This document shows positions 2,978 through 40,660 of a stretch of 64,000 nucleotides of DNA, one piece after another. The first letter of the stretch is position 1. Every line of letters starts with the position of its first letter. Position numbers and translations under genes: made by a program. The notes below the pieces were generated by a model. The model was not told the DNA's origin and ran no database searches. It worked only from the letters and a program-made list of their open reading frames with translations. Source of the DNA: an uncultured Fibrobacterota bacterium (GTDB taxonomy: Bacteria > Fibrobacterota > Chitinivibrionia > Chitinivibrionales > FEN-1185); assembly GCA_963753345.1 (NCBI GenBank), contig CAVWBU010000019.1:64001-128000 (forward strand). The letters run 5' to 3'.

Positions 2978-5263
2978 TCAATCACCGGTCTCCAACGCCC
3001 TCTTCGCCCCGGCCACCACAAGCTGCCCATACGAAATACATTCGTCATTCGGCGGCGTGCGCCGGTGCAAAACAGGCGTAAGCCCCGCCTGCTTCAAAAG
3101 CGGTAACAGCCGTGTCACGAGCAATGCGTTCTGGAACACGCCGCCGCTCAGGCACACGTTGGTGCACCCGCATTGCTGTGCGGCAATGGCGGCGGCGGCC
3201 GCGGTTGCCTGTGCGATGCTCGTGTGGAACCGCGCCGCAATTTTCGGCACCGGCGTTCCGCTTTTAAGGTCCTCGTATACTTCGCACAGCAGAGCCGGCC
3301 CGTCGATGATGATTCCGTCCTCCTCGATTGACAGGGGCGAGCCGTACGAGCCGGCCTCCAGCGGATCGACCGCGCCTTCGAGCATGATCGCCGGCTGTCC
3401 CTCGTACGTTCTTTTCGAGCAGATGCCGAGCAGTGCCGACGCGGCATCGAACAGCCTGCCCATGCCGCTCGACCGAACGCAGTTGACGTTGGATTTCACC
3501 ATGTCAAGCACTGCTGATTTTTCCTCCTGCGGCATCTGCGGAAGGGCGCTTTCCGCTTTGTCGCCAAGAAGCCTAAACAGCGCGGCAAGCGCGATGCGGC
3601 CCGGGTTGCGAATCGCTTCGTCGCCGCCGGGTAGGGAAAGGTATGAGAGGTGCCCCAGCCTGCTATAGCCGGTGTAGGTCGCGTGCAGGATCTCGCCACC
3701 CCATATCGTGCCGTCCTCGCCGTATCCCGTGCCGTCGAAAACGGCAGCGAGCACCCCATCTGAAATCTCGTTTTCCGCCATGCAGGCGGCCGCATGCGCG
3801 TGATGGTGCTGGATCTTTACAACAGGCAAACCCGAAGACGTCGCGTGCGATCCGATAAGCGACTGCGGGTGCATGTCGCACACGTAAACGGCCGGGGTCA
3901 CGCCGAGCGCGGCCGCAAGGTGGTTTGTCGCAAAGGCCAGGCTGTCGAGCGCCTCAGTCGTATCGACCGTTCCTATATAATGGGACAGGTAGCAGTCATT
4001 TTTCCTGCCAGCGGCAACCGTGCTTTTCAGAACGCCGCCCAAAGCAACAAGGCCGGTCACATCTGCGGGAGACGGTAATGGTTCGGGGACGAATCCGCGC
4101 GACCGCCGCAGGATCACGGGCATGTCGGTAACGACGCGTACAATGGAATCGTCGTTGCGCATGTAAATGGCCCGGTCATGCGTGAGGAATGCGTCGGCAA
4201 TGCCGCCGAGGGTCGTATAGGCTTTGTCATCGCCGTGGATGATGGGTTCGTCGGCCAGATTCGCACTTGTCATGACAAGAGGAGGGATTCCATCGTCATG
4301 AAAAAGCAGGTGATGTAACGGTGCGTAGGGAAGCATGACGGCAAGCGTGGGCAGTCCCGGAGCAACTTCGTTTGCAATCCCCGGAGCTCCGCTCTTCTTT
4401 GCAAGCAGCACGATCGGGCGCTCCGGACTTTCGAGGATGTTCTGTTCGGCTGCGGATATCACCGCGCACCGGAGGGCCGCCGGCGCGTCCTTCACCATAA
4501 TCGCAAAAGGTTTCTCCTCGCGCTGTTTGCGCTTGCGAAGGACCGAGACGGCCGCTCCTGAATCGGCCCTGCAGGCAAGATGGAATCCGCCGATGCCTTT
4601 TATGGCCAGGATTTTCCCGCTGTTCAGCAGCTCGATTGCGGCGGTGATCGGATCATCTTTGTTGACGATAGTGCGTCTACTGTCCGTCAAGGCAAGTTTC
4701 GGTCCGCAATCGTGGCAGCAGATTGGCTGGGCATGAAATCGCCGGTTCGCGGGATCTTCATATTCCCTTTTACATTTATCGCACATGTCAAATGACGACA
4801 TGGTGGTGTTGGGCCGGTCGTACGGTAGCAGTTTGATGATGGTGTAACGCGGGCCGCAGTCGGTGCAGTTGATAAAAGGATGATGAAATCGGCGGTTTGA
4901 AGGATCAAACATTTCCTCCAGGCATGCCGGGCACACCGCGGTGTCGCGTGCGATATCGATTTCCGCGGATTCGCCTTTGTCACTTTGCGCGATGCTGAAG
5001 CCTGCAGGGACGTTTTCAACGGTTGTTTCCTTGATGGCGATTGATTTGATGTGCGCCAAAGGAGGAGCGGATTGTTTGATTGATTGTATAAATGCATCGA
5101 GATGATTTTTGTCGCCGAATGCTTTGATAGTCACTCCCGAGCTGTCATTTCGCACTTCGCCCCTGATTGAATGAATCTTTGCGATACGATAGACAAACGG
5201 CCTGAACCCGACGCCTTGAACCGTGCCTTTGATTGTGATAGTGAAACAGAGTTTTGGTTTCAT
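2978..5263 (-). CDS. hypF: carbamoyltransferase HypF
   Basis: Acylphosphatase domain GTVQGVGFRPFV, two CxxC zinc fingers, KGIGGFHLAC, QHHHAH, FDGTGYG, NDECIS; likely start MKPKL at 5263. Confidence 0.95.
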   Translation of the reverse strand: MKPKLCFTITIKGTVQGVGFRPFVYRIAKIHSIRGEVRNDSSGVTIKAFGDKNHLDAFIQSIKQSAPPLAHIKSIAIKETTVENVPAGFSIAQSDKGESAEIDIARDTAVCPACLEEMFDPSNRRFHHPFINCTDCGPRYTIIKLLPYDRPNTTMSSFDMCDKCKREYEDPANRRFHAQPICCHDCGPKLALTDSRRTIVNKDDPITAAIELLNSGKILAIKGIGGFHLACRADSGAAVSVLRKRKQREEKPFAIMVKDAPAALRCAVISAAEQNILESPERPIVLLAKKSGAPGIANEVAPGLPTLAVMLPYAPLHHLLFHDDGIPPLVMTSANLADEPIIHGDDKAYTTLGGIADAFLTHDRAIYMRNDDSIVRVVTDMPVILRRSRGFVPEPLPSPADVTGLVALGGVLKSTVAAGRKNDCYLSHYIGTVDTTEALDSLAFATNHLAAALGVTPAVYVCDMHPQSLIGSHATSSGLPVVKIQHHHAHAAACMAENEISDGVLAAVFDGTGYGEDGTIWGGEILHATYTGYSRLGHLSYLSLPGGDEAIRNPGRIALAALFRLLGDKAESALPQMPQEEKSAVLDMVKSNVNCVRSSGMGRLFDAASALLGICSKRTYEGQPAIMLEGAVDPLEAGSYGSPLSIEEDGIIIDGPALLCEVYEDLKSGTPVPKIAARFHTSIAQATAAAAAIAAQQCGCTNVCLSGGVFQNALLVTRLLPLLKQAGLTPVLHRRTPPNDECISYGQLVVAGAKRALETGD

Positions 5264-5303
5264 GAGGGTGCGGCTGTGCGCGGCTTCGGGCCACCGGGCA
5301 TTT

Positions 5304-5961
5304 TCAGGGGCGACCGTGGGATTTGAGGCCTTCCAGGTACGCGGCGAGCGCGTCCACTCCTTCGCCCGTGGTGCACGACACCCGGAATATCTCGGCGTCG
5401 TTATCTGAGCTTCCGGATGTCGGCAATGGCGCGCTCGACGTCGAACTTCACATACGGGAGCAGGTCGATCTTGTTGATCACCACGGCCGCGGCGCGGACA
5501 AAGAGGCCCGGGTACTTGATGGGTTTCTCGTCGCCCTCGGCCACCGACAACACCGCCAGTTTTTCGTCCTCGCCGAGGTCGTACGACGATGGGCACACGA
5601 GGTTTCCCACGTTTTCGATCACCAGCAGCCGTACACCGGCAAAAGACTGTTGTTTGACGACCTCGTGTATCATGTGCGCCGTAAGATGGCAGGAGCCCCT
5701 GGTTTCAATCTGGATCGCCTGCGCGCCCGCTTTTTCCAGTCTTTCTTTGTCAAGCTGCGTCTGGATGTCGCCGGTGATCACCAGAAGGGAGCGTCCCATC
5801 CGGCCGGCAAGCGCCTCGAGGATAGACGTCTTGCCCGAGCCGGGCGAGCTTATCATGTTGACAACCGCGATGCCCGCTTTCCGGAACAGGTCCCTGTTGT
5901 GAGCGGCCACCGCATCGTTGATCGCATGCGCGCTTTTTTCGAGCCGTATTGTTTCAGGCAT
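5304..5961 (-). CDS. hypB: hydrogenase nickel incorporation GTPase HypB (one extra base at ~5405)
   Basis: SSPGSGKT, CHL, ENVGNLVCP, EGDEKPIKYP, NKID; deleting base 5405 restores C-terminus NNDAEIFRVSCTTGEGVDAL... ending at TGA 5304. Confidence 0.9.
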
Positions 5962-6289
5962 CCTCGACCTCAATGCTTTCCACCATGCAGTCCTGGCCCG
6001 CGGTAACGGTCCTGGCGTATTCGCCGCACTTCGGGCAGGCGGAAGCCATGGTTCGTGCCGTGTACTGTTCGCCGCACGAGCAGGTGAATGCCGCCGGCAC
6101 CTCTTTAAATTCGATTTTCACGTTGTTCATGCCCATGTCCGGGAGGACGAGTTCAAGGTACATGGTGAGCGATTCGGTAAATATACCACTCAGCGCGCCG
6201 ACGGCGAGCGTGATTTGCCGCACCGGGCGGCCCTGCGCCGTTTGCTTGACAAGAGCGGCTATTTCGCAGGCGACCGAATATTCGTGCAT
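5954..6289 (-). CDS. hypA: hydrogenase maturation nickel metallochaperone HypA
   Basis: MHEYS N-terminus, VGALSG, CSC and CPKC zinc ligands. Confidence 0.92.
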   Translation of the reverse strand: MHEYSVACEIAALVKQTAQGRPVRQITLAVGALSGIFTESLTMYLELVLPDMGMNNVKIEFKEVPAAFTCSCGEQYTARTMASACPKCGEYARTVTAGQDCMVESIEVEDA

Positions 6290-6430
6290 GGTTGATTCCC
6301 GAAAAATGATGATCGCAAATGCGACCTCACCCCGTCCCCCTCTCCGCCAGGAGAGGGGCTCAAATCGAAAGCCGCTGTTCTTTTGACTCTTGGCAAGAAC
6401 CTTTGGGTTCCTTTTGTTATTCCAATGTCG

Positions 6431-6584
6431 CTCGTGGGTGCCCCCGCACAGGTGCTTGATTCTTGCAACCGGCCCCACTTGGGGTGCACCCAGGAGGGGG
6501 TAGCGCAGGACCGGCCGCAAATATTCTGAATTCTAGTTTATGAAGTACGCGGCCGGGCCGGAGCGAGGGGGAACCTTCCCCCCC
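6431..6584 (+). repeat. structured intergenic repeat family B, copy 1
   Basis: Shares TCGYGGGTGCCCCC, GGGGTGCACCCAGGAGGGGGTAGCG and GGCCGGGCCGGAGCGAGGGGG blocks with 21861-22014 and (reverse strand) 25504-25653. Confidence 0.8.
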
Positions 6585-6608
6585 GTTATAAAACTTTTTA
6601 CCGTTCTT

Positions 6609-7886
6609 TTAATGCGTCGAACAGGAAATGCACGGGTCGTATGCCCGCACGAGCATCTCGAGCAGAAGCTGGAGCTCGTCCTTGCCCCTTTCCTTGAACT
6701 GCGGGACAAGCTTGTCCATGTCAAGCTGGATGTTGGCATGGTTCTGGTTGGTGGGAATGATGCAGTTCGCCTTTACGCATTTCCCCTTTGTGTCGTAGGT
6801 GTAATCGTGGAACAAAATACCGCGCGGCACGTCGACCGCGCCCACGCCGCGGCCCTCGCGTGGCGTAAAGGAGACGGGCTCGGCGGCAAGCTTACCATCA
6901 AGCAATGCGTCGATATGATGAATGGTGCGCTCCGTAAAGTAAACGCATTCCACGAGCTGGGCCACGGTATTGAAATAGGGGTTGAAGCACGGCCCCTTCA
7001 TCCCGAAGTCTGCGGCGATCGCGGTAGACAGCGGCGAAAGCTGTTTGTAATTGTTGTTGTACCGGGCAAGCGCGCCTGCCATATAGGCGTCGCGGTTGAA
7101 CTTCGCCCATTTGGCGGTGGAATGCGGCGTCATGTATTCGTTGGTGACGCGCAGGTAATCCTTCACAGGTATTGGTTCTTCAACATCGGTCGACTTGATC
7201 TGGCCGTCGTAGCTGGCGTATTCCGACGGGTCGGTGAGCGACACATATTCGGTCTCGCGGGTAAAATTCGGCAGGCCGCCGGCCAAGGATTTCACCACGC
7301 CCGCAAGTGTCTGCAAATCCTTGAGCGCTTCCACATGCTTTGTCTTAAGAGCGGCGAGGTCTTTCTTTATCGGGACCTTGGTGAACCCGCCGATGCACGT
7401 GCGGATTGGGTGCGTGGTGCGTCCGCCCACCACGTCGCAGGTCTCGTTTGCGAGTCGGTGAAGCTTGACAACAAGGAGGACCGCGTCCTTGTGCGTCGTC
7501 GCCAGAGGGATAACGCTTCCCACTTTCAGAAGGTCGGGGAGCGCAAGGTACCCGATGTGGAGAATATGGCTTTGCAGGTTTTCGCCGTGGTTGAGGATCT
7601 CGCGGAGGTGGCGCGTCTGCTCGGAGATCTGAATGCCGAACGCGGCCTCGGTGGCCTTGAGCGACGCAAACGTATGGCCTATGGAGCAGATGCCGCAGAT
7701 GCGCGAGGTGATGCCCGCGACTTCGGTGCAGTCCCTGCCCACCACCATGGCCTCGAAGAACCGCGGCGCCTCGGGCACGCTCCATTGCACGGACTTGATT
7801 TCGCCTTTGTCTATGTCGACATGGATATTGCCGTGGCCCTCAACCCGGGTGACCGACCGGACGTCTATATGGATCGACGAGTTCAT
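6609..7886 (-). CDS. hydA: group 3b [NiFe]-hydrogenase (sulfhydrogenase) alpha/large subunit
   Basis: TRVEGHG, L1 RICGICSIGH, VPRG, L2 RAYDPCISCSTH; start MNSSIH overlaps the delta-subunit stop (ATGA). Confidence 0.93.
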   Translation of the reverse strand: MNSSIHIDVRSVTRVEGHGNIHVDIDKGEIKSVQWSVPEAPRFFEAMVVGRDCTEVAGITSRICGICSIGHTFASLKATEAAFGIQISEQTRHLREILNHGENLQSHILHIGYLALPDLLKVGSVIPLATTHKDAVLLVVKLHRLANETCDVVGGRTTHPIRTCIGGFTKVPIKKDLAALKTKHVEALKDLQTLAGVVKSLAGGLPNFTRETEYVSLTDPSEYASYDGQIKSTDVEEPIPVKDYLRVTNEYMTPHSTAKWAKFNRDAYMAGALARYNNNYKQLSPLSTAIAADFGMKGPCFNPYFNTVAQLVECVYFTERTIHHIDALLDGKLAAEPVSFTPREGRGVGAVDVPRGILFHDYTYDTKGKCVKANCIIPTNQNHANIQLDMDKLVPQFKERGKDELQLLLEMLVRAYDPCISCSTH

Positions 7887-8629
7887 TTGGTGGCCTCCGG
7901 CTCTATCGCAAACATGGTGAACTGCCGCATGATGTCTTCGGCCGTCAATTTGTTCTTGGTAAGGACTTCCTGCATGGCGTTCTTGTTCGGGTTGGGGACG
8001 GTGCCCCGGCAGCCTTCGCACGGGGAGTTGTTGCTTGGGCATATCGCGTTGCACCCGGCCCGGGTGATGGGGCCGATGCAGACCTGGCCCTTGTCGTACA
8101 TGCATTCGTTGCCCCGCGCCTTGCACTCCACGCACACCGGGTATTCGGGAATGTCGGGCGTGGTGCCGAACACCAGCGCTTTCACCACTTTTAGAAACTC
8201 GGATCGCGTTATGGGACATCCGTGTATCTTGTAATCAACAGGCACCACCTCGTGCACTGCCTTGGTGGGGTAGGTGTCGAGGTGCGGCATGGCAAAGTCT
8301 TTGCCGTACACTTCCTTCTTTACTTTGTCGATATTCCCCCACAGGTTCTTTATCTTGTTCACCCCGCCCGTGGTTGCGCATGCGCCGAACGCCACAAGCA
8401 CCTTTGCGCGGTTGCGGATGTCCTTGATGCGCTCCTCGTCGGCGGGACGCGAAATGGAACCCTCGATAAATGCGATGTCGTAGCTTGGGGCCTTGCCCGT
8501 GTACACTTCGCGGAACTCGACGATCTCGACGAGGTTGAGCACCGCGAGCAGGTCCTCCTCGAGGTTGGCTATCTGGAGCTGGCAGCCTTCGCAGCAGGTG
8601 AAATCGAAGAATGCGACTTTGGGTTTCAT
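7883..8629 (-). CDS. hydD: sulfhydrogenase delta/small subunit
   Basis: FTCCEGC, EGS, GACATTGG, GCP, C-terminal Fe-S cysteines. Confidence 0.92.
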   Translation of the reverse strand: MKPKVAFFDFTCCEGCQLQIANLEEDLLAVLNLVEIVEFREVYTGKAPSYDIAFIEGSISRPADEERIKDIRNRAKVLVAFGACATTGGVNKIKNLWGNIDKVKKEVYGKDFAMPHLDTYPTKAVHEVVPVDYKIHGCPITRSEFLKVVKALVFGTTPDIPEYPVCVECKARGNECMYDKGQVCIGPITRAGCNAICPSNNSPCEGCRGTVPNPNKNAMQEVLTKNKLTAEDIMRQFTMFAIEPEATK

Positions 8630-8630
8630 G

Positions 8631-9479
8631 TTACAGCGCCTCCACGAGGTGCGTTATGCCTTCGAGCGTGAACACGGGACCGTCCTGGCACACGTACACG
8701 CCGTCGATCTGGCAGTGGCCGCATTTTCCCACGCCGCATTTCATGCGGCGTTCCAGCGACACGATGACGTCGGCGTCCTTGAACCCCAGGGTGCGCAGCT
8801 CGAGGATCACGAATTTGTACATCACCGGCGGCCCCACGATGAAGGCCTTGGTGTTTTTCGGGTTGAGGCGGTCCTTGATTTTCGGGATAAGCGTGGTGAT
8901 GACGCCGGTATTGCCGTTCCACGACGGCGAGCCGCGGTCAACCGTTTCGAGAAATTCGATGGAGGTGTTCTTCTTCCACGAATCCATTTCATCGGTGAAA
9001 AGCCGCTGGGAAACGTCGGTGAAACCGCACAGCAGAAAGATCTTGCCGTAATCGGCGCGGTTGTCAAGCGCGTAGTTGATGGCCGAACGCAGCGGCACGA
9101 GCCCGATGCCCGCGCCGAAGAACAGGAGGTCCTTGCCCTTGAATTCGTCCATGGGGAAATGCGTGCCGTACGGGCCGCGTACCCCGAGGGTGTCGCCCGG
9201 CTTAAGGTCGTGGATCGCCGCCGTCACCTTGCCCACCTTGCGAATCACCATCTCGAAGCTGCCCTTCCTCGTGGGGGACGAGGAAACCGAGATGGGCGCC
9301 TCGCCGATTCCGGGAATGCAAAGTTCGGCGAACTGGCCGGGTTTGTGGCCAAGGTCTTTTCCGTCAAGTCTGAACTCGAAGTACCGGTCGCGCTCGGTCA
9401 TGGGGCTGGTCTTCACCACGGTAAGCATCTGGGGCATGTATATGGATTCGTGATTGCCGCATCCGCATGCTTCGCACAT
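8631..9479 (-). CDS. hydG: sulfhydrogenase gamma subunit (FAD/NAD(P)-binding, 2Fe-2S)
   Basis: PGQF, GEAPIS, RGPYG, GAGIGLVPLR, MKCGVGKCGHC, VCQDGPVF. Confidence 0.92.
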   Translation of the reverse strand: MCEACGCGNHESIYMPQMLTVVKTSPMTERDRYFEFRLDGKDLGHKPGQFAELCIPGIGEAPISVSSSPTRKGSFEMVIRKVGKVTAAIHDLKPGDTLGVRGPYGTHFPMDEFKGKDLLFFGAGIGLVPLRSAINYALDNRADYGKIFLLCGFTDVSQRLFTDEMDSWKKNTSIEFLETVDRGSPSWNGNTGVITTLIPKIKDRLNPKNTKAFIVGPPVMYKFVILELRTLGFKDADVIVSLERRMKCGVGKCGHCQIDGVYVCQDGPVFTLEGITHLVEAL

Positions 9480-9480
9480 G

Positions 9481-10512
9481 TCATGACTCCTTTTTCAGAA
9501 GATCAGCGTCGATGTCCGGAGGGTACGCGATGTCCGCCGTGCAAGCCTTTTTGCACCTGCCGCAGCCCACGCAGCCGGCAAGCCCGAGTTTTTCCAGAAG
9601 GTATTTCTGTTTTCGGTACAGCCGGTGCCGGATTCGGTCGGCGGCTTTTTTGCGGAAGTTATGGCCGCCCGCGCACACGGCAAAAGGCTCGAGCACGCAC
9701 GCGTCCCACGTGCGGAACCGCAGCCCGTAATTGAAGGAGAGGTCGAGTTCGTCGAGCATGTCGAAGCAGTAACAGGTGGGGCACACCGTGACGCAGGAAC
9801 CGCAGGAAAAGCATTGTGCGCCCCGCGTCTCCCATACCGGGTGGCGCTCCTTTCCGTCAAGAAAGGAGGGAAGCGCGTCGCGCTTCACCTGGAGCGTCAC
9901 CGTGTCCTTCACCGCGGTCTTGGCCTTCTCGGCCTTGGCCTTGATATCCGCGCCCGCCGGCGTTGCCGCGCTTGCGGAGAAGAATTCCTTGCCGCGGTCG
10001 GAAACGATTTCCACGGCATAGGAGGAGTCGCCCATGTCAACAAGAAAAGCGTCGGCCGCGAGATAGGGTTCTTCGGGCTTTATCATGGACGATGTAAAGC
10101 GGTATGCGCCTGGTTTTGTGGGATAAATCCCCACGAGCGTGGTCTTTTCCCTGCGCGTGCAGTAGTTCGCGTCGATGTTCCCCTCGGTAAATGCCTTGTC
10201 GAGCATGGCGATGGCGGCGAGGTCGCCGGGATGAATGCCGATAATTGCCTGGTCCTTCTCCGCGTACACGGGCTCGCACGAGGACGCGTCCTTGGGCGCG
10301 TAGGACAGCACAGGGTCCCTGGGCGGAAAAAGATATTGCTTCGGCGAGTACATGGTTTCGTCGAAGTCAAGCCTGAGGTCGGCGCCTGAAGCAAGCCTGT
10401 CGTACGTGAAACGGCCGTCTTTCTGCACCACGCCGAACAGGTCAAGGGGACCGGCGGCGAGCGTTCCCACAAAATCCAGGAATTCCTTTTTTGAGATCAG
10501 CAAAAGTTCCAT
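9481..10512 (-). CDS. hydB: sulfhydrogenase beta subunit (4Fe-4S dicluster)
   Basis: CFSCGSCVTVCPTCYCF, RTWDAC, CVGCGRCKKAC. Confidence 0.92.
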   Translation of the reverse strand: MELLLISKKEFLDFVGTLAAGPLDLFGVVQKDGRFTYDRLASGADLRLDFDETMYSPKQYLFPPRDPVLSYAPKDASSCEPVYAEKDQAIIGIHPGDLAAIAMLDKAFTEGNIDANYCTRREKTTLVGIYPTKPGAYRFTSSMIKPEEPYLAADAFLVDMGDSSYAVEIVSDRGKEFFSASAATPAGADIKAKAEKAKTAVKDTVTLQVKRDALPSFLDGKERHPVWETRGAQCFSCGSCVTVCPTCYCFDMLDELDLSFNYGLRFRTWDACVLEPFAVCAGGHNFRKKAADRIRHRLYRKQKYLLEKLGLAGCVGCGRCKKACTADIAYPPDIDADLLKKES

Positions 10513-10694: not shown

Positions 10695-10901
10695 GGTGGG
10701 GGCACCGCTTCGCGTTTCCCCCTGGCCCCCGGCTTCCGCCGCACCTCAATTGCCACGTAACAATGCATCAAGCGGTGCGGCGGCGATCCGGGGCACACCC
10801 CCTCCAGCGGAAACACGCACGAGGCGCATCGCTTGCGCAATGCGCGTGTCGTGTTCCCGCAACGCCTTCTATAAGGTATGCCGCTTCGCGGCGATGAAAA
10901 C
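10695..10901. repeat. structured repeat family C, copy 1 (candidate structured ncRNA or ssDNA element)
   Basis: Aligns over ~190-200 nt with 30140-30324, with compensatory stem changes. Confidence 0.8.
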
Positions 10902-10986: not shown

Positions 10987-13900
10987 GTGAATATCGCAGG
11001 TATTCTGACAAAAATCTCTTCCTGGGAAGAGTTCAGGCGGGAAGTGCGCGGCCTGAGCGACAAGGGAAAAGGCGACGCCTTTGAACTGCTCACCCAGTAT
11101 TACTTGAGGATTGAGCCGCGGTATGCCACAAAGCTTTCAAAAGTCTGGCGCCTTTCCGAAGTGCCGTTAAGGATCACGGAAAAACTCCGGCTGCCTCCGG
11201 CAGACAAGGGCATTGATCTAATCGCCGAGACAAAAGACGGTGAATACTGGGCTGTCCAGTGCAAATACCGCGAGGACCAGACACATTCGCTTACGTGGCG
11301 CGAGCTTTCCACCTTTACCGGCTTGGCCTTTACGGTCTGTAAAGGAATCTCCTTCGGCCTTGTCTGCACCAATACCGAACGATTCACCGGAGTTCTCAAA
11401 CATCAGGATAAAATCGGGTTCTGTACGCTCGATACCTGGATAGATCTGGATAAAACATTTTTCAGGAACATCCGGGCATTGCTGTACGCACCGTCCGGAA
11501 AAGATAACGCCCCTGCGGCCGCGTCCGCACCAGAAAAAAGCCATCACTGAAGCCTCCCGGCATTTTGCAAAGCGCCGCCAGAAACGCGGAAAACTCATAA
11601 TGCCCTGCGGCACGGGGAAAAGCCTTGCAGCATTCTGGATCGCCAGAAAACTAAAAGCCAGAAAAATCCTTATTGCAGTGCCCAGTCTTGCGCTTATCAG
11701 GCAGACCCTTAAAGTCTGGCTCAGGGAGGCAATTGCCCATAACCAGCCAATAGAATGGCTGTGTGTGTGCAGCGATGAAACCGCCGGAAAAATAGGGCAG
11801 GATGATGTGTCGGTGCTCAAGCAGGATCTCGGCGTACCGTGCTTTACAAATCCAAAAGAAATCGCGGCAAAGCTTAAAACACAAGCGCAGGGCCTTACTG
11901 TTGTTTTTACCACCTACCAGAGCGGCAAAGCCATTGCCGATGCTTCACGGAAGACCGGCTACTCATTCGACCTGGGCATAATGGACGAGGCGCATAAAAC
12001 CGTTGGCGCAAAAGACAAACTGTTCACGCATCTGCTTTACGACCGGAACATTACAATCCGCAAGCGGATTTTCATGACCGCAACGGAACGCCGGTACATA
12101 GGCCAGAGCGACGAAATCGCCAGCATGGAAGACGAGAAAATGTACGGCGACACCTTTTCCCTTCTGTCCTTCAAGGAAGCCCTTGAATACAAACCGCCCA
12201 TACTGAGCGATTACCGGATCATCACCATCGCGGTTTCGCGGGATGAGGTCGCAGACCTCATAAAAAAGAATCTGTTTGTAAGGCCCGACAAAGGCCCGTG
12301 GGACCGCGAAGTCGAGGCGGAAATGCTCGCCTCGCTTGTTGCGCTTCGCAAGGCAATGAAGAAATACCCCATCAGGCACGCGGTCTCCTTCCACAGCAGC
12401 ATACAACGGGCCAGGGTGTTCCAGGAAAACAGCGACGCATTTACAAAAGCGTTCCCCAAATACGGCAAGCTCGAAGCTTTCCATGTTTCCGGCAAAACGC
12501 CTACGGGCACGCGCGCAAGGACACTCGACGATTTTAAAAATGCCTCCCGCGCCCTGATCACCAATGCCCGGTGCCTCACGGAAGGCGTGGACGTGCCGGA
12601 CATAGACTGCGTTCTGTTCGCAGACCCGCGTAAAAGCACCATAGACATCGTGCAGGCAGTGGGCCGGGCGCTCAGACCGGCAAAGGGAAAAGCGCGGGGA
12701 TACGTTGTTATCCCGATTCTCCATGACTCGCGGATGAAAAGCGAGGAATTCCTTGAAAGCGAAGAGTTCAAGGAAGTGCTGACGACGCTACGGGCGCTGG
12801 CGTCGAATGATGACAGGATTATCGAGTTTTTCCGGGCAGTGAGCAAGGGAAGACGGGTTGGAAGGGGCGGGATTGTTGAGTTTGATGTTGATGAAAGATT
12901 GGGAAGAAAGATTAAGATTGATGAGTTTGTTAAGGCGGTGGAGTTGAAGTGCTGGAGCAGGTTAGCGAGGCTGAGTTGGAGGGAGTTTGAAGAGGCGAGG
13001 GGGTTTGTACATAAATTGAATCTCAAGAGCGAAGCCGAATGGCGTGCATATTGCAAAGGTCGGATTCAAGGTAAGCCTAGGAAACCCGATGATATTCCGG
13101 CACACCCAGGTCACATTTATCGCGGCAACGGTTGGGTTGGCATGGGCGACTGGTTAGGAACGGGAACCATTGCACCACGACTACGGGTATACCGTCCATT
13201 TAGGCAAGCACGAGCCTTTGTGCACGGTTTGAAACTTCACGACAGAAAGGAATGGAGCGCATATTGTAAAGGCCAGCTACGAGGCAAACGCAAGAAACCA
13301 AATGACATTCCAGCCAGTCCAGTTAAGACCTACTGGGGCAAAGGTTGGATTTCTATAGGTGATTGGCTGGGAACAGGAGCAATCGCCACATTCATGCGTA
13401 AATTCCGCGCCTTTAAGCTGAGCACGTTCGTTCTCGCGAGGTTTGGAACTCAAGAATGTAACCGAGTGGCATGCATATTGTGGAGGCCAGCTACAAGGCA
13501 AACGCCCAAAACCAATTGATATCCCGAGTAATCCGCAAAAAAGTTACGTGGGAAAAGGATGGGTGAATTGGGGTGATTGGTTAGGAACAGGAAATGTGGC
13601 AAATACATTACGGGTTTTTCAACCTTTCAAACGCGCCCACGCCTTTGCCCGCAGTTTGAAGCTAAAGAGCGAAGCTAAGTGGCGCTCATATTGTGAAAAT
13701 AAGTTACCGGGTAAACCAAAAAAGCCAGATGATATTCCGATCTATCCAGGAGATATATACCATGGGAAAGGTTGGGTTGGTATTGGCGACTGGCTAGGAA
13801 CAGGAACAATTCCGCCACGTTTACGCACATTTCGGCCATTCAAACAAGCCCATGCTTTTGCTCGCCGTTTGAAACTCAAGAGCGGAACTGAGTGGCGTGC

Positions 13901-14495
13901 ATATTGTAAAGGTCAGCTTAAAGGCAAACCTAAAAAACCCGATGATATTCCGGCTAATCCAGATAAGTATTACCGAGGTGAAGGTTGGGTTAGTAGGGGT
14001 GACTGGCTGGGTACAGGAAGAATTGCAGATCATTTACGCATCTACAGGCCGTTCAAACAAGCACGCGGCTTTGTGCGTGCTTTGAAACTAAAAAGTGGAG
14101 ATGAATGGAAGGCATATTGCAAAGGCCAATTACGAGGTAAAACAAAGAAACCAGATGATATTCCGGCTCATCCAGAAAGAACTTATTGCAGTAAAGGGTG
14201 GAATCGTATGGGCGACTGGCTGGGAACGGGCACCATTGCACCCGGTCTAAGGGTATATCGCTCCTTCATACAAGCTCGCGCTTTTGTCCATAGATTGAAA
14301 CTAAAAACCGGAGATGAGTGGAAAACCTATTGCAAGGGTCTGCTAGAAGGCAAACCAAGAAAACCTCATGATATTCCAATTGCCTCGGATCAGGTATATC
14401 GAGATAAAGGCTGGCGAGGTATGAAAGACTGGTTGGGAACTGAAAAACGTATTTTTTCAAAAAGAAAAAATAGAAATCAAAGTAAAGAACTTTAA
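10987..14495 (+). CDS. Mrr-like restriction endonuclease + SF2 (DEAH) helicase + seven 71-aa C-terminal tandem repeats; split by single extra bases at ~11487 and 13421
   Basis: Nuclease KGDAFE..DKGIDL..AVQCK; Q motif PRPHQ in the shifted frame; Walker [27 protein letters not shown]. Removing two bases joins ORFs 10987-11550, 11600-13519 and 13443-14495 into ~1168 aa. Confidence 0.85.
12977..14460 (+). repeat. seven 213-nt (71-aa) coding tandem repeats
   Basis: Unit consensus (F/Y)[62 protein letters not shown]. Confidence 0.9.
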
Positions 14496-15064
14496 GCAAC
14501 GCCCCTTCCATGGCACTTTTTGTACTTCTTCCCGCTACCGCAAGGACAAGGATCGTTTCTGCCGACCCTGGGTAAGAGGGATTGGTTTTGTTTCATTTTT
14601 TCTTCGTGGCCTTTAACAAAGTCGATGCACTCTACGGACGGCATTCTAAAAGAAAAAACCGTCTGGCCGTCTTTATTTGTGACCGCAAAATCCCCGCTAT
14701 TTATTATGTCCATTCCTATGAGAACATCCGTTCCTGTCAAAACCCCCTGAGTGACTTGCAATATCGGAATCACAATCTTATTCGGTAATCCAATACTCAC
14801 ATAGTAGGTGGGAACCGTATCCGTACCGCTTGCAGTATGGACTCTTGCCATGCCGGTAGGCTTGAGATTGCAGGACTGGACAACATTTCTTGAAATTACT
14901 GTTCGTGTTGCTCCCGTGTCCCATATTGCCTTAAAGGGCTTGTGGTCGCCTTTAGGCGGAGGGGATTTAGGATCGAACGGGGAACCAATATGGGCAGGTG
15001 TTGCTAAGACATTGGCTATTTTGTCAAGACGTGCTGTAAAACCGAAGACCTTTACTTGGGGCAT
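14492..15064 (-). CDS. retropepsin-like (clan AA) aspartic protease with C-terminal SEC-C zinc motif
   Basis: AIWDTGAT catalytic motif, [27 protein letters not shown]. Confidence 0.88.
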
Positions 15065-15075
15065 CTAGAAAAGGC

Positions 15076-15312
15076 CTATATAAAAGCAAAGCGTGAGTGG
15101 TAGGTCGCGGAAAACGACTCGTCTCCGGGCACACATTTTTGAACCAGAAAGGTACCGATTTCGCAATTTTCTTTTGTCTTGTTGATAGCTTCAAGTTCTG
15201 AGGAATAATCGCCAATTACTTGGCAATCCTTGATTACAATAAACCGGCCATTGTATTTCTGGACCAGTTCATTTTGATGATCAAGATAATATTGAAATTC
15301 TTTTTCTAACAT
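15076..15312 (-). CDS. small protein (DUF5678-like) co-transcribed with the aspartic protease
   Basis: 78 aa, EFQYYLDHQNELVQKYNGRFIVIKDCQVIG; GAGG RBS; 11 bp upstream of the protease. Confidence 0.7.
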   Translation of the reverse strand: MLEKEFQYYLDHQNELVQKYNGRFIVIKDCQVIGDYSSELEAINKTKENCEIGTFLVQKCVPGDESFSATYHSRFAFI

Positions 15313-15497
15313 GACCTCATCTCCCTAAATGGAAACGCTCTATCAACTCTTGCTCTATTTGTTATTTCGGTTGGTTCAACAAGATATTTAGCGGTGGTTT
15401 CAAATATAGTATAATTCTGTGGCCTCATATGATGAATTTCAAGATGCCCGCCATGCGCTTACGAATTTTCGATCACACTCCTGTTGTATGTCTTTCG

Positions 15498-15633
15498 CGC
15501 CAGGCCGGAACGTAGGCCGCGTTAGAACGCGGTGCCGCCCGGACACGCCGCGAAGCGGCCTAGTGCCGTGGCGGCCGGAGGCCGAAGGCCGAGACCGGAG
15601 CGAGGGCCGCCGCTGCAAAGCAGCGGGGCGCCC
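15498..15633 (+). repeat. GC-rich palindromic repeat family A copy
   Basis: Blocks GGTGCCGCCCGGAC, GGCCGAGACCGGA and GCCGCYGCAAAGCRGCGGGGCGCCCA shared with 21609-21752, 28324-28503 and 40224-40398. Confidence 0.8.
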
Positions 15634-15988
15634 AGAATTTTTATTCTGGTCGAGTATGGTATTTATTGATTCAATCCCTTCAAACATCTTCTTCAAGTTA
15701 TTTTACTCCTCAATAAAAACCATTACAAGAAATAGAACTTCACAAAATCACCAAGAAAGAACACCTATCACAACCTCTGCGGAATGCCGCTTCACGGCGA
15801 TTATTCAGTAGGACACAATCTCTTTCTTCAATTATTGTATGTCAATGAATTGTGAACATACAATCAAGCATTTGTCTTCTGCGCTTGCGCCAGGTTGGAC
15901 TGAAGGGGACGCCAGAGCGCATTGTCACTTCGTTCCCTAATGTATGGAAATAGCGCTTCGCGCTTCACAATTAAATTGTTTGCCTTAT

Positions 15989-16143
15989 GCCGGCCGACGA
16001 CCCTTGGAAGCACCCGACGGGGTGCCCCGCCGACAGGCATAGGGGCGGACCGGCAACGAGGCGAACAGCCGAGCCCGGAAGGAAGACCCCGCCCAACAGG
16101 AAGGGCGGAGCAGGTTCCGCCGCCGTCTTCGGCGGGGCGCCCA
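15989..16143 (+). repeat. repeat family A variant copy
   Basis: GGCCGACGACCCTTGGAAGCACCCGA shared with the 40224 copy; GGCGGACCGGCAACGAGGCGAACAGCCGAGCCCGGA shared with the 40510 copy; ends in GGGGCGCCCA. Confidence 0.75.
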
Positions 16144-17978: not shown

Positions 17979-19019
17979 TTAAGAATGTGATAGCACTCTA
18001 GTCAAGACGTCGACAAAGACTTTTGAATCGAGAAAGTAGTTCGGATATGCTCGGCGCAATGAATCCAAAGAATCAACCGACACAAGTACAGCATCAGTAG
18101 CAGGTCGATTTGTGTTGGACTGTTCCACTGATAAGTATTCTTCCGAAGCCTTATTAAGGTCTTCCTTTTTAAAACCGGCAACCTGAACGCGGTTATTAAC
18201 AGGGTCAAGGTTGAGAAGCAAATAATCTGCATTTTTCGCATTTTGTGTTTCCGAAACCTGTAATGCATACCCAAAACCTTCAAGGCGTCGTGCGACCTGA
18301 ATTCGATTTGCGTAATCGCGTAGCTCGTTTAGTAGTTCTGTCTTTTGAGTCGGGGTATCGGGGACAAGAGTAGTAGCTTCCTCATTAGCCATTACGCTGC
18401 CCATGAGAGAAAAAAAACGTTTCCAGTTTTCATCTCCAATGCTTGATTTTAATGCTTGGTTAGTAAGAGTACCAACCGTTTCAACTGTGGTGGCCCACGC
18501 GTGTTGAAGGAAAGTTCGGATTTGAATTTCGATCTTCAGGTCATTGTAGTGCTTATATTTTTTATCACTGTAGTAACGATAGACAAGATGGATACCACGA
18601 TAACCAGATGGTTTCGGGTTTCTGATATAGTCTTTCGCTCCAACTAATTTGTGTTTTAAGTGACCCTTCTTATACATACTCACGATCTTATCTACGCTCC
18701 TGATATCTTTCACAATGGCTCGACACCCGCCGATGTCCTGCATTTGAGGCAGCTTCATACTTGGTAGCAGCTCTAATTTTAACTTAATAGAATAGAGGCG
18801 TTTGATACGTTGGGCAATAAGCACATGTGGGTCAACTTGCCTTGCTTTTGAGCGAAGCCCATTTTGAAATACATTTAGAGGATAGTAATGGCATGCACGC
18901 CAATTGTTGATCACTTGGAGGGTTTCTTCAAGCAAAGCTGGCCGAGTATGCGGATTAACTAGCTCATCCCCAGCAGATTCTACCCGAGCTCTTGAATATT
19001 GTAGGGTTGCCCATTCCAT
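17979..19019 (-). CDS. RelA/SpoT small alarmone synthetase-domain protein, CapRel-like fused toxin-antitoxin
   Basis: QRIKRLYSI, MQDIGGCR, DYIRNPKPSGYRGIH, EIQIRTFLQHAWA; C-terminal VLVS..SLRRAYPNYFLD (YxxY); lower GC than flanks. Confidence 0.85.
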   Translation of the reverse strand: MEWATLQYSRARVESAGDELVNPHTRPALLEETLQVINNWRACHYYPLNVFQNGLRSKARQVDPHVLIAQRIKRLYSIKLKLELLPSMKLPQMQDIGGCRAIVKDIRSVDKIVSMYKKGHLKHKLVGAKDYIRNPKPSGYRGIHLVYRYYSDKKYKHYNDLKIEIQIRTFLQHAWATTVETVGTLTNQALKSSIGDENWKRFFSLMGSVMANEEATTLVPDTPTQKTELLNELRDYANRIQVARRLEGFGYALQVSETQNAKNADYLLLNLDPVNNRVQVAGFKKEDLNKASEEYLSVEQSNTNRPATDAVLVSVDSLDSLRRAYPNYFLDSKVFVDVLTRVLSHS

Positions 19020-21530: not shown

Positions 21531-21608
21531 TCCAAAGCAAACACAGAACTGAACCTGGATGGAACCAGGGCATTCTTCTCGCCTTCCTTAATAGACCAGG
21601 ATAAATAC

Positions 21609-21752
21609 TTGGGCGCCCCGCCGCTTTGCGGCGGCGGCCGTCCTTCCGGTCTCGGCCTCCGGCCTCGGGCCGCCTCGGCCCTATGCCGCGGTAGCGGCGG
21701 GTCCGGGCGGCACCACGCTTTGGCGCGGCCTCCAGTCCTGCCTGGCGCGCGG
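21609..21752 (-). repeat. repeat family A copy
   Basis: TTGGGCGCCCCGCCGCTTTGCGGCGGCGGCCGTCCTTCCGGTC is identical at 40224. Confidence 0.85.
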
Positions 21753-22014: not shown

Positions 22015-22167
22015 ACCAGATATTTCATTTTTTAAATGGTCTTGAGAGACCTTAAAGGACGAGCCTTGTAATTCCCATCCCGCCTCTATATAATGTTAAT
22101 AGTAAACATAGAGGAATGTAACAACGCTGAGAGCAGGGAAATCGTGTCTTTCAAGAGTTCAATTTCA

Positions 22168-28323: not shown

Positions 28324-28590
28324 GCCGAGCGTTAGGCCGGACTGGAGGCCGCGCCAGAGCGCGGTGCCGCCCGGACCCGGCCGCGTACTCGCGGCATAGG
28401 GACGAGGCGGCCCGAGGGCGAGCCCGAGACCGGAAGGAGGGCCGACCCGAGCCTGAGCAACACCATGAGCGAAGTTGAAGGGCGAAGGCGAGGGGAACGC
28501 CCATATTCTTTGTTTGGATTACTATTGCAAGGAGGCCGAGGCCGGGGGAGACGACCCTTGGAAGTACCCGACGGGGTAAACTTCTCCCCC
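28324..28590 (+). repeat. repeat family A copy plus a partial downstream module
   Basis: GGACTGGAGGCCGCGCCA..GCGCGGTGCCGCCCGGACCCG, GAGACCGGAAGGA; GACGACCCTTGGAAGTACCCGACGGGG at ~28548. Confidence 0.75.
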
Positions 28591-30139: not shown

Positions 30140-30324
30140 GGTGGGGACACCACTTCGTGGTTTCCCCTGGGGTGCAGCTTCCTTCCGCTGAAGATCAGCG
30201 GGAGGCGATCTGCACCCACACCCTTTCCAGCGGAAACGTGCGCGAGGCGCAACGCTTGCGCGTTGCGGGCGTCACGTTTCCGCAACGCCTTCCTGTAGGA
30301 ATGCCGCTACGCGGCATGGAAAAC
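30140..30324. repeat. structured repeat family C, copy 2
   Basis: Homologous to 10695-10901 with covarying stems. Confidence 0.8.
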
Positions 30325-40223: not shown

Positions 40224-40660
40224 TTGGGCGCCCCGCCGCTTTGCGGCGGCGGCCGTCCTTCCGGTCCACCGCTTCGGGTGCTTCCAAGGGTCGTCGGCCT
40301 TGGGCCTCGGGCTGCCTGCCACGAGGGCCCTGCGGGCCGTGGTCAGGGCGCATCCCGCTGTCGCGGGACCATCTTTCCAGTCCTGCCTGGCGCTTGGCAG
40401 CGGGAATACTGCACAATCCACACGCTTGACAAATTGGCAACTTCTTGTTCTGTTTTTTAAGAATTCAACATGGCGCAAGTATTTCTGCTTGACAGAACAT
40501 ATTTCTGTTGCCGCGCGTTAGGTGGACCGCAGGGCGCGCTAGAGCGCGTTGCCGGCCGACCCGGCCGCTAGGCATAGGGCGGACCGGCAACGAGGCGAAC
40601 AGCCGAGCCCGGAGGGAGACCGACCCGACCCCGAGCGAAGTGAGGGGGAGGGGAACGCCA
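40224..40660. repeat. two oppositely oriented family A copies (40224-40398 minus, 40510-40660 plus) at the 3' end of hgcB
   Basis: Shared blocks with the 21609, 15989 and 28324 copies. Confidence 0.8.

Follow-up and report, generated by a model that had tools for sequence, protein, structure and literature searches.

The question raised by this locus is what aims a DNA motor with an attached nuclease when the part of the chain that should hold a methyltransferase and TRD is occupied by a row of repeats. The window (the whole stretch of DNA that was analysed, 64,000 nucleotides) contains at 10987-14495 on the forward strand one gene for a 1168-residue protein, interrupted by two one-base insertions. 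With a probability of about 0.55, we propose that this gene belongs to an uncharacterised family of ATP-dependent nucleases of type ISP stock, in which a swappable array would serve as the recognition module and act by the mechanism outlined below. The main new result is that, in a nuclease-motor-INT_rpt architecture, different arrays come and go on a motor that stays the same. The gene is spread over three ORFs in successive frames, and both the length of 1168 residues and the register of the repeat units refer to these frames joined with an X at each break. Its parts, with the ORFs taken from the ORF list, are:

10987-11550, forward strand: ORF 1
11600-13519, forward strand: ORF 2
13443-14495, forward strand: ORF 3
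10987-11484, forward strand: Mrr-family PD-(D/E)xK nuclease domain and linker, residues 1-166 (Pfam Mrr_cat_2, E 7e-17)
11485-11488, forward strand: break 1, four bases for one codon, frame moves +1 (tblastn with P0020)
11489-12976, forward strand: SF2 helicase-like motor and helical coupler, residues 168-663 (Pfam ResIII, Helicase_C, DEAD)
11603, forward strand: helicase motif I, PCGTGKS (motif search)
11984, forward strand: helicase motif DEAH
12077, forward strand: helicase motif TAT
12653, forward strand: further helicase motif of 10 residues (motif search)
12977-14468, forward strand: array of seven INT_rpt-type units of 71 residues (motif spacing, alignment, profile)
13418-13421, forward strand: break 2, CTGA for one codon, in unit R3 at position 6, frame moves +1 (three-frame translation)
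14469-14495, forward strand: short, basic C-terminal tail of 8 residues and stop codon

Like the type ISP enzymes LlaGI and LlaBIII, the protein is a single chain that begins with an Mrr-family nuclease motif and continues with an SF2 motor and coupler. An earlier note, made from the letters of the sequence, had placed an Mrr-like nuclease and an SF2 helicase ahead of the repeats, and Pfam agrees, with Mrr_cat_2 in the first ORF and ResIII and Helicase_C in the second. The nuclease motif residues E33, D73, D77, Q91 and K93 are all present and correspond to the motif I Glu, motif II D-x3-D and motif III Q-x-K of the type ISP nuclease; the available part of PMC2790908 gives the LlaGI motif as E38/D74/D78/Q92/K94, which follows the same pattern. 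The SF2 ATPase is then followed by a coupler, here taken together with the motor, as in type ISP enzymes. The type ISP character claimed for this N-terminal half is also apparent from the PADLOC model REase_MTase_IIG, whose match covers only positions 11-645 of 1646 (the motor segment accounts for positions 193-645, E 3.7e-74). When the predicted structure of the P0121 motor is compared by Foldseek, the best match is LlaBIII (4xqk, E 2.5e-32) and the next is LlaGI (1.6e-16), while the model also appears similar to SauUSI (7clg, E 1.7e-9) and to RadD (E 2.8e-10).

Both indels that had been suspected in the gene could be located against two intact relatives, P0020 (92% identical over the nuclease-linker segment 10987-11484) and L017, and each consists of four bases where one codon is expected. 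In particular, break 1 reflects an A at 11486 that L017 lacks (blastn) and is the only indel within the coding motor in that comparison, and a single X at break 2 preserves the 71-residue register. Neither break lies in a homopolymer run. Programmed frameshifting is ruled out, as P0020 and L017 are read in a single frame and neither site has a slippery run or an in-frame stop. The window copy has probably been inactivated by the two frameshifts. It is unlikely that they are sequencing or assembly errors and that the gene is really intact, even though each break is a single extra base, the catalytic motifs are all preserved and the motor has a dN/dS of 0.049 against L017, which means that any decay must be recent; moreover, frame changes within arrays occur in 7 of 80 genome loci, mostly in metagenome-assembled genomes, and could represent a shared assembly problem. 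What speaks against errors is the position of both breaks outside homopolymers and the state of the three flanking genes compared with L017, which are full-length and without a frame-breaking indel. Furthermore, the repeat copies, spaced at 213 bases, are only 62-74% identical in DNA, so that misassembly is not expected. Relatives are mostly intact, with an ORF of at least 900 aa in 73 of the 80 genome loci. An intact copy of 1118 aa, with six units by motif count, is present in the cultured Salinimicrobium xinjiangense DSM 19287 (L056), and Akkermansia muciniphila genomes account for 5 of the 80 loci. The tail beyond the last DWLGT is kept in P0020, and the stop codon shares four bases with the end of a convergent gene at 14492-15064.

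Unlike type ISP enzymes, the protein has neither a gamma-class adenine methyltransferase nor a TRD, and an INT_rpt array stands in their place. Indeed, the N6-adenine methyltransferase that type ISP enzymes carry in the same chain is missing, and instead of a globular TRD the C-terminal 505 residues are made up of seven units and the 8-residue tail. The absence of a methyltransferase motif or of a neighbouring methyltransferase gene had been asserted from the start and holds on a wider search: none was found in any of the three pieces of the gene (Pfam, NCBIfam, PADLOC) or among 19 neighbouring ORFs in the window at 1-30 kb, and no methyltransferase model matched among 150 ORFs adjoining the genes of relatives (PADLOC, which has methyltransferase models). 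Since the gene lacks self-methylation, self discrimination must work differently from type ISP. A nuclease without a cognate methyltransferase, as found in the gene, in the ORFs of the window and in the neighbours of relatives, is a trait of type IV systems. In SauUSI, one of these, the nuclease is of the phospholipase-D type and a single domain reads the modification. Like SauUSI (PDB 7clg), the window protein joins a nuclease, an SF2 motor and a C-terminal recognition region and has no methyltransferase; unlike SauUSI, it has an Mrr-type nuclease and a C-terminal array of several units that contains no recognised modification-sensor family. Pfam, NCBIfam and PADLOC detect no modification-sensing domain (SRA, PUA/EVE/YTH/ASCH etc.). 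The available part of PMC12191111 likewise describes type IV systems as having no methylase gene.

The array consists of the following units, all defined by array alignment, and the last line marks the point at which its sequence departs from that of L017:

12977-13189, forward strand: unit R1
13190-13402, forward strand: unit R2
13403-13616, forward strand: unit R3, which contains break 2
13617-13829, forward strand: unit R4
13830-14042, forward strand: unit R5
14043-14255, forward strand: unit R6
14256-14468, forward strand: unit R7
13012, no strand: 5' end of the replaced segment, where blastn similarity to L017 ends, about 12 codons into R1

The description of seven basic 71-aa units proved exact. 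The seven DWLGT motifs follow one another at 71-residue intervals in the read-through protein, and a profile built from the seven window units finds each of them again at 109-127 bits, while the same profile detects no other array or silent cassette in the 64-kb window. Residues 664-1168 (array and tail) have a net charge of +64 and a pI of 10.4, and the net charge is positive in 282 of 282 arrays examined, with a median of +5 per unit. The window units align without gaps with those of relatives, where between 1 and 14 units per gene are detected by profile (78 kept loci with units); the spacing is exactly 71 or 66 residues in 83% of 1796 spacings and the linker is conserved. Units inside one array are 44-68% identical to each other, and 23 of the 71 columns are invariant among the seven window units. 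Across 1147 units from 167 relatives, an entropy of at least 3 bits is reached at 17 unit positions (5, 9, 19, 20, 23, 24, 29, 32, 35, 38, 43, 45, 46, 54, 67, 68, 71). The residue strings reported earlier for positions 17-21 and 42-47 are identical to our alignment, and these patches are partly what they were taken for: positions 19, 20, 43, 45 and 46 are highly variable, whereas K17, E21 and P44 are conserved.

The tentative resemblance to an 'integrase repeat' pointed to the right family. Through their relatives, the array units can be placed in Pfam INT_rpt (PF14882, earlier named PHINT_rpt), the 'integrase repeat unit', and the clusters nearest to the array in the Atlas carry PF14882. With the curated gathering cut-off of 26.5 bits as the threshold for assignment, the pieces of the window gene stay below it (19.2 bits for ORF 2, no match for ORF 3) and relatives score above it (L017 41.2, P0021 32.8, P0055 70.3 and P0004 102.7 bits). 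The sole paper found for the family is PMC8078820, whose available part tabulates INT_rpt among repeat families without known structure, and no recorded function for INT_rpt was encountered there or elsewhere in the search. PADLOC has no family that models the array. Newer Pfam annotation labels the same units PF26016 ExoI_C too; kinship with E. coli exonuclease I, suggested by this label and by weak PF08411 matches, was not significant in a profile comparison with one sequence (probability 0.15%). The INT_rpt-type repeat is represented by 5692 cluster representatives at E<=0.001, and it occurs on integrases as well as on SNF2 and giant-virus helicases. Outside the present family, the units are fused to SF2/SNF2 helicases with Methyltransf_8, to Integrase_2, to SAP and to a zinc finger, and some arrays are joined to Ank, TPR and PilZ domains.

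A comparable layout is present in SF2 helicases with HA (helicase-associated, PF03457) arrays on Actinobacteria and Pseudomonas plasmids, where a related helicase is followed by several helical units of about 64 residues. In all, 763 plasmid records were matched, each below 60% identity, with a helicase identity of 31-38% among the 15 listed of the 763. According to its title, Mills et al. 2013, cited in PMC12191111, takes the structure of the HA domain as an indication of DNA binding. The HA domain was nevertheless rejected as kin of the present units: when 128 of them were compared by hhalign with five HA units of L081, no relation was detectable (probability 0.46%, E 0.13), and the likeness is an analogy of design and not family membership.

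Structure prediction gave an AF2 model of the array with a pLDDT of 91.3 and a pTM of 0.50, with confidence lower in the linkers. The units are thus predicted with confidence singly and not relative to one another, and the model lends no support to a solenoid or to packing into one continuous superhelix. No solved structure matched the array model in the PDB (Foldseek, best E 2.0), and profiles of 7 and 128 units compared with PDB sequences gave best E values of 0.32 and 0.095; no known DNA-binding fold was recognised in these searches against solved structures. In a viral structure library, the predicted array has one match at E<=0.001 (8.4e-5, an unnamed protein), next to which come a Klosneuvirus helicase (E 1.2e-3) and, more weakly, giant-virus helicases; these may serve as a lead only.

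Strong comparative evidence on the role of the array comes from close relatives. In the syntenic L017, the motor and the flanking genes are 90% identical to the window in nucleotides. The motor has a dS of 0.425, similar to that of the flanks (ettA dS 0.432, dN/dS 0.044; Fer4 gene dS 0.455), and, with its low dN/dS, has been inherited vertically under strong purifying selection. The arrays at the same place have a pS of 0.789, which is saturated, and an amino-acid identity of 50.5%; that of L017 contains six units, each some 60-66 aa long, in which GW is changed to EW. Nucleotide similarity ends at 13012 and returns only at about 15494. In P0020, whose motor is 94% identical to that of the window, the array has nine units and is 55% identical, no closer than any two arrays are to each other. 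In the allele group P0197-P0203 the motors are 98-99.6% identical and the arrays unrelated: the alleles stay similar as far as helix 1 of the first unit, become similar again in the C-terminal tail, and have no unit in common above 80%. The replacement boundary in the first unit is of the same kind as that at 13012.

This pattern extends over the family. Among 160 non-identical full-length members, motors at least 98% identical form 23 pairs, in which the arrays are below 70% identical in 17, between 70 and 90% in 0 and at least 90% identical in 6; arrays are also below 70% in 22 of 24 pairs with motors 95-98% identical and in 142 of 146 pairs with motors 90-95% identical, counts that overstate how often arrays differ because the protein database was clustered at 90% identity and pairs alike throughout had been removed. 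The bimodal array identity without intermediates points to replacement from an allele pool rather than drift. The array is replaced as a block between close relatives, which may differ in how many units they have and even in the type of unit. Close motors of the family bear different recognition parts in the same way as LlaGI and LlaBIII, whose first three domains, according to the available part of PMC3553950, are more than 95% identical while the recognition half varies. As in the TRD exchange of type I and type ISP systems, a conserved enzymatic core has its recognition part swapped block-wise between strains; unlike in TRD exchange, the swapped part is a tandem array of variable length and there is no methyltransferase sharing its specificity.

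These comparisons give strong support to the suggestion that the array is the aiming part, and they support, at the level of sequence, its role as a variable recognition module. The net charge of +64, the strict spacing and the DNA-enzyme fusion partners suggest that it is probably DNA-binding. In the mechanism that we propose, the array would be a nucleic-acid-binding target-recognition module whose binding to the target would allow the motor to translocate along DNA at the expense of ATP; cleavage by the Mrr nuclease would follow once the motor stalls or runs into a second enzyme, both steps by analogy with type ISP. Since the gene has no cognate methyltransferase, self may be spared, as in type IV systems, because the target (a DNA modification, a sequence or a structure) would be missing from host DNA, and array exchange would alter what is targeted.

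The array could instead bind protein, as a sensor or docking platform (cf. STAND/Avs) through which a phage protein or a host partner activates the nuclease-motor. Block replacement and fast change of C-terminal repeats on a conserved effector are indeed seen in protein-sensing immune receptors, and the lack of a recognised DNA-binding fold and the Ank, TPR and PilZ fusions of some arrays would agree with such a role. Yet every array examined is basic, the non-motor fusion partners mostly act on DNA, and the array sits where type ISP enzymes have their DNA-recognition half, all of which makes a protein sensor quite improbable.

A TALE- or zinc-finger-like reader, in which each unit reads one or more bases or a modified base and the order of units spells a long site, had been the idea of the earlier note, and it is now very doubtful. 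The strict unit length with a conserved linker, the range in unit number and the swapping of entire arrays on constant motors are in its favour, and in the model the variable residues are predicted to map to a single face of helix 1 (5, 9), to the beginning of helix 2 (19, 20, 23, 24) and to the surroundings of a short helix 3 (43, 45, 46), with units arranged as beads on a string like free zinc-finger arrays. However, the residue classes are not the small, discrete set by which TALE specificity is recognised: among 1468 distinct units there are 223 distinct dipeptides at 19-20, with the top eight accounting for 27%, and 612 distinct triplets at 43/45/46, with the top eight accounting for 14%, and variable positions are coupled by no more than 0.35 bits of excess mutual information. 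The 17 variable positions have a dN/dS of 0.94, measured in the only locus pair with orthologous arrays and DNA, with no excess over neutral; positive or diversifying selection is unsupported by this single measurable pair, and near-neutral rates at these positions are equally compatible with a relaxation of constraint and with selection for novel targets. In addition, the units of one array are far less alike than TALE repeats, alleles have no reshuffled units in common, and a long fixed site would be easily lost by phage. The broader conjecture that INT_rpt arrays are natural programmable nucleic-acid readers, in which a unit of 66 or 71 residues, kept in register by the conserved linker, contacts a fixed DNA step or modified base, one conserved nuclease-translocase is retargeted by swapping whole arrays out of an allele pool, and the same units also aim integrases, SNF2 motors and giant-virus helicases, is a long shot.

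The surroundings of the gene bear on whether the enzyme is immune at all. The window gene is placed between hydrogenase genes and ettA, outside any defence island. Two small genes downstream are not part of the system, as they have no matches in 80 loci, and no conserved neighbour or partner gene was found, the largest neighbour cluster being present in 6 of 80 loci. PADLOC matches at E<=1e-8 occur in 23 of 150 adjoining ORFs versus 13 of 150 ORFs at a distance of 4-7 kb (Fisher p 0.11), a comparison that takes these distal ORFs as background, and an association of the family with defence islands is suggestive only. In 20 loci the neighbours match defence models, e.g., SoFic, BrxL, IetAS, DpdE and the pAgo-system SIR2 domain. 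A non-immune motor for DNA repair, recombination or chromosome processing, with the array as a generic tether to DNA that could drift and recombine at its surface with no change in function, would suit the housekeeping locus shared by the window and L017, the dS and nearly equal dN/dS of motor and ettA, the near-neutral variable positions, the non-significant island signal and the predicted resemblance to RadD, but it is hardly probable given the patchy distribution of the family, the bimodal array identity on close motors, the defence-like neighbours in those 20 loci and the fact that restriction enzymes are the nearest relatives of the motor.

The architecture is common, with 251 relatives in a collection of 185,579 GTDB species genomes, while plasmid and phage collections contributed one weak array match each (24.5% and 22.4% identity). 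A literature search returned no paper on a nuclease-motor-array family. The family is widespread and uncharacterised.

For the window itself the meaning is more modest, as it holds what is probably a dead copy at a housekeeping locus. For the family, if the proposal of a nuclease-motor aimed by its array is true, there would be a restriction-like enzyme that needs no methyltransferase and is directed by a block-exchanged tandem array, the type ISP and type IV repertoire would gain a new kind of recognition module, and an orphan Pfam repeat would be assigned a function. The P0197-P0203 allele series makes it directly testable whether specificity follows the array.

The gene at 10987-14495 (+) is spanned by three ORFs in successive frames, and its product, read with X at both breaks, comprises 1168 residues:

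10987-11550, +: ORF1, Pfam Mrr_cat_2 (E 7e-17)
11485-11488, +: break 1, four bases in place of one codon, with an extra A at 11486 relative to the syntenic locus L017
11600-13519, +: ORF2, Pfam ResIII, DEAD and Helicase_C, with a sub-threshold match to the integrase repeat unit INT_rpt (19.2 bits, cut-off 26.5)
13418-13421, +: break 2, four bases in place of one codon
13443-14495, +: ORF3, no significant Pfam match, no PADLOC model matched

The nuclease residues E33, D73, D77, Q91 and K93 and the helicase motifs PCGTGKS, DEAH and QAVGRALR are all retained; together with Mrr_cat_2, ResIII and Helicase_C, these complete motifs bear out the Mrr-like nuclease and SF2 helicase proposed in the earlier note. 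The same nuclease pattern is present in LlaGI, where it has been demonstrated to be important (as described in an excerpt of PMC2790908). The full-length model of the related protein P0121 (pLDDT 78.7, pTM 0.60) has LlaBIII as its best fold match (E 2.5e-32), followed by LlaGI, RadD, HsdR and SauUSI. Matched positions of the PADLOC type IIG/ISP model PDLC03597 are limited to 11-98 and 193-645 of 1646, and an NCBIfam scan of the three ORFs returned distant helicase matches only, far under the cut-offs. Domain order, intact catalytic motifs and a motor like that of type ISP enzymes are established.

The motor is followed by an array of seven units, whose DWLGT motifs are spaced by exactly 71 residues. 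Pairwise identity among the units is 44-68%, with 23 of 71 columns invariant, and the array has a net charge of +64, a pI of 10.4 and 4.8% Trp. Alignment of the seven units confirms the residue strings that the earlier note had read at the variable patches. Among 1147 units of the family, 17 positions have an entropy of at least 3 bits, within a conserved scaffold (Y-R-P-F-x-E-A-R-x-F-[AV]-R ... E-W-x-x-[FY]-C-K-G ... P-x-D-I-P-x-x-P-x-x-T-Y-x-x-K-G-W-x-G-x-G-D-W-L-G-T-G). In four near-orthologous array pairs, substitutions fall on 112 of 442 sites at these positions versus 134 of 1404 elsewhere. For L004 and L052, the one pair of loci with orthologous arrays for which DNA is also available, dN/dS is 0.11 in the motor, 0.16 at conserved array positions and 0.94 at the 17 variable positions, which in this pair are near neutral, with no excess over neutral.

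The model of the window array (13422-14492; pLDDT 91.3, pTM 0.50, with lower confidence in linkers) predicts in each unit helices at residues 4-13 and 19-26, then a long loop rich in Pro, followed by short helices at 44-48 and 56-60. Helix 1 holds variable positions 5 and 9 and helix 2 holds 19, 20, 23 and 24, a spacing that, in the model, is consistent with exposed faces. Fold and profile comparisons of the array found no solved structure resembling it. The BFVD viral library gave weak matches, mostly to giant-virus SF2 helicases; among the best eight, rank 1 and ranks 4-6 are unnamed and the rest are SF2 helicases of Klosneuvirus, Marseillevirus, Bodo saltans virus and Terrestrivirus. The named helicases have E from 1.2e-3 upward, with a Mimivirus helicase at rank 20 (E 2.3). 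A helicase joined to an INT_rpt-like array may also be a design of eukaryotic viruses.

The array is exchanged as a block on conserved motors. L017, which comes from a MAG with the label Chitinivibrionales, shares its gene order with the window: nucleotide identity is about 90% for each of the hydrogenase-associated genes upstream, the motor, and ettA downstream, with no nucleotide similarity from 13012 to about 15494.

Substitution rates between the window and L017 (Nei-Gojobori counts)
Motor: dS 0.425, dN/dS 0.049
ettA: dS 0.432, dN/dS 0.044
Fer4 gene: dS 0.455, dN/dS 0.083
Array: pS 0.789 (saturated), dN/dS not computable, 50.5% amino acid identity

Since silent sites are saturated in the array and the flanks stand at dS 0.43, the array has been replaced rather than diverged in place. 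In L017 the array consists of six units, each about 60-66 residues long, and EW stands in place of the window's GW. The intact relative P0020 has a motor 94% identical to that of the window and nine units, and its array is 55% identical, the level between arbitrary arrays, the last unit alone being higher (65%). The same holds across the family, where the protein database was clustered at 90% identity and pairs alike throughout were collapsed, so that the fractions of pairs with differing arrays are upper estimates; this clustering affects neither the bimodality nor the DNA-level case.

Array identity in pairs of 160 non-identical full-length members, by motor identity (differing-array fractions are upper estimates)
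Motor at least 98%, 23 pairs: array below 70%, 17; 70-90%, 0; at least 90%, 6
Motor 95-98%, 24 pairs: array below 70%, 22; 70-90%, 2; at least 90%, 0
Motor 90-95%, 146 pairs: array below 70%, 142; 70-90%, 2; at least 90%, 2

In particular, the allele group P0197-P0203 has motors 98-99.6% identical and 6, 7, 6, 9, 7 and 7 units, with no unit common to the arrays at more than 80% identity. Similarity in this group extends through helix 1 of unit 1 and is back at the C-terminal tail; the window-L017 boundary at 13012 coincides with that boundary in the first unit. A basic, strictly periodic array that is block-replaced on conserved motors is established.

As for the two breaks, P0020 aligns successively to all three frames of the window gene, and the extra A at 11486 is the sole indel within the coding motor relative to L017. 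Programmed frameshifting was rejected because neither break site has a homopolymer or slippery run and both P0020 and L017 read through the two sites in a single frame. Full length is retained in all three flanking genes that were compared with L017. Frame changes within the array, one or two per locus, were seen at 7 of the 80 related loci, mostly metagenome-assembled (L007, L028, L034, L038, L043, L070, L074), and could be recurrent gene decay or recurrent MAG assembly error. The window copy is more likely dead than alive, and sequencing or assembly errors at both of its breaks are a possible but rather doubtful explanation.

When longer proteins were searched with the array, 7405 candidates yielded 2669 matches at E<=0.001, most of these bearing PF13156, PF04851, PF00271 and PF14882. 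PF14882 is INT_rpt, the 'integrase repeat' family named in the earlier note, rightly so since relatives pass its Pfam cut-off. The helicase part gave 1721 matches from 7999 scored candidates, and the 120 listed are 64-75% identical, P0020 excepted (95%). Counted by motif in 120 array-search proteins, units number 0 to 17 per protein with a period mostly of 71 or 66 residues, and 83% of 1796 spacings in 295 proteins have precisely one of these two lengths. With each GTDB species represented by a single genome, 251 relatives were identified, and 80 of these loci were kept for the locus analyses. Going by record titles, about 35 of the 80 are from Verrucomicrobiota; among the remaining groups are Lentisphaerae, Planctomycetes, Campylobacterota, Flavobacteriales and Desulfobacterota-like lineages. 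At 73 of the 80 an ORF reaches 900 aa or more, and profile-detected units number 1 to 14 per gene (mode 6-7). The profile of the window's seven units matched 5692 cluster representatives at E<=0.001 among 1.84 billion proteins; among the best 146, the Mrr-helicase module accompanies the units in 40, and in 85 fewer than 120 residues lie beyond the units. Many of these 85 may be contig fragments. The remainder of the 146 have other partners, namely SF2 or SNF2 helicases with Methyltransf_8, Integrase_2, SAP, a treble-clef zinc finger, Ank, and PilZ with TPR. The sole array-like match in the plasmid collection is a Pseudomonas plasmid gene, 'VPA1269 family protein' (NZ_CP084414.1, H16; 24.5% identity), and that in the phage collection a region without annotation in an uncultured phage of 485 kb (LR745208.1, H17; 22.4% identity).

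The gene sits between a NiFe-hydrogenase/hyp cluster and ettA, and its surroundings include:

2978-10512, -: NiFe hydrogenase cluster, upstream (HypF, HypA, large and small subunits, FAD/NAD and 4Fe-4S subunits)
14492-15064, -: 190-aa protein, retropepsin-like aspartyl protease domain and C-terminal SEC-C motif
15076-15312, -: 78-aa ORF without Pfam match, preceding the protease-like gene
17979-19019, -: 346-aa protein whose sole domain is a RelA_SpoT nucleotidyltransferase (E 8.6e-18), adjoining ettA
22093-25098, +: CHASE2-adenylate/guanylate cyclase, 1001 aa, further downstream
10794-10901, 15496-15659, 15992-16088, 21586-21749, 28334-28577, 30217-30324 and 40225-40621: short GC-rich intergenic repeats, copies 80-96% identical, scattered through the window on both sides of the gene
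10875-10895 and 15781-15801: 21-nt hairpin-like direct repeat

The hydrogenase cluster and the cyclase are ordinary context. The RelA_SpoT protein is a small alarmone synthetase or else belongs to the toxSAS type, and an ORF occupies the corresponding place in L017. The protease-like gene and the 78-aa ORF, both within the segment without counterpart in L017 and with no relatives in the 80 loci, may together form a small pair that is mobile or resembles a toxin-antitoxin system. The short repeats, perhaps elements of REP or MITE type, could serve as substrates for recombination; the orthologous gene of L017 is bracketed by an inverted pair of 52 nt (1977-2028 and 5714-5765).

No methyltransferase was detected among the 19 ORFs scanned in window 1-30 kb, in agreement with the earlier note, and no neighbour is conserved across the 80 loci; absence of a methyltransferase and of a conserved partner is established for the regions scanned. 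The sole recurrent neighbour, and the largest neighbour cluster, is a Fic protein at 6 of 80 loci (L008, L010, L012, L018, L026, L080), immediate, usually just upstream on the same strand, and matching PADLOC SoFic (E down to 1e-119). At E<=1e-8, PADLOC models matched 23 of 150 adjacent ORFs (every one of the 117 at +/-1, plus the first 33 out of the 107 at +/-2) in 20 loci, including SoFic, BrxL, IetA/IetS, DpdE/ZorD, TIR, SIR2 and several candidate systems, with no methyltransferase model among the matches. In the distal control, 13 of 150 ORFs (from 196 lying 4-7 kb off) matched; the Fisher p is 0.11, and the link to defence islands is therefore suggestive only.

We favour, with a probability of roughly 0.55, an array-targeted type ISP/IV-like nuclease-translocase that spares self through an absent target. 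The array would bind DNA and select the target; target binding would license ATP-driven translocation, and the Mrr nuclease would cleave at stalling or collision, by analogy with type ISP enzymes, for which ATP-driven translocation with cutting upon stalling or collision is described (excerpts of PMC4666363 and PMC3553963). Self would be spared because the target is missing from host DNA, as in type IV enzymes (excerpt of PMC12191111). That the array senses a protein is unlikely. A code-like modular reader, akin to the TALE/zinc-finger-like sensor of the earlier note, is slightly more improbable; no discrete residue classes were seen at the variable positions and coupling between them is weak, which counts against it. 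A non-immune role in DNA processing is equally improbable.

Searches of open-access papers and preprints found no description of the family or of INT_rpt function, and none of the PADLOC 2.0.0 models covers the array. Collectively, the family shares with type ISP and type IV enzymes the nuclease-translocase kind but differs from them in what is its new part, an exchangeable, repeat-built candidate recognition module.
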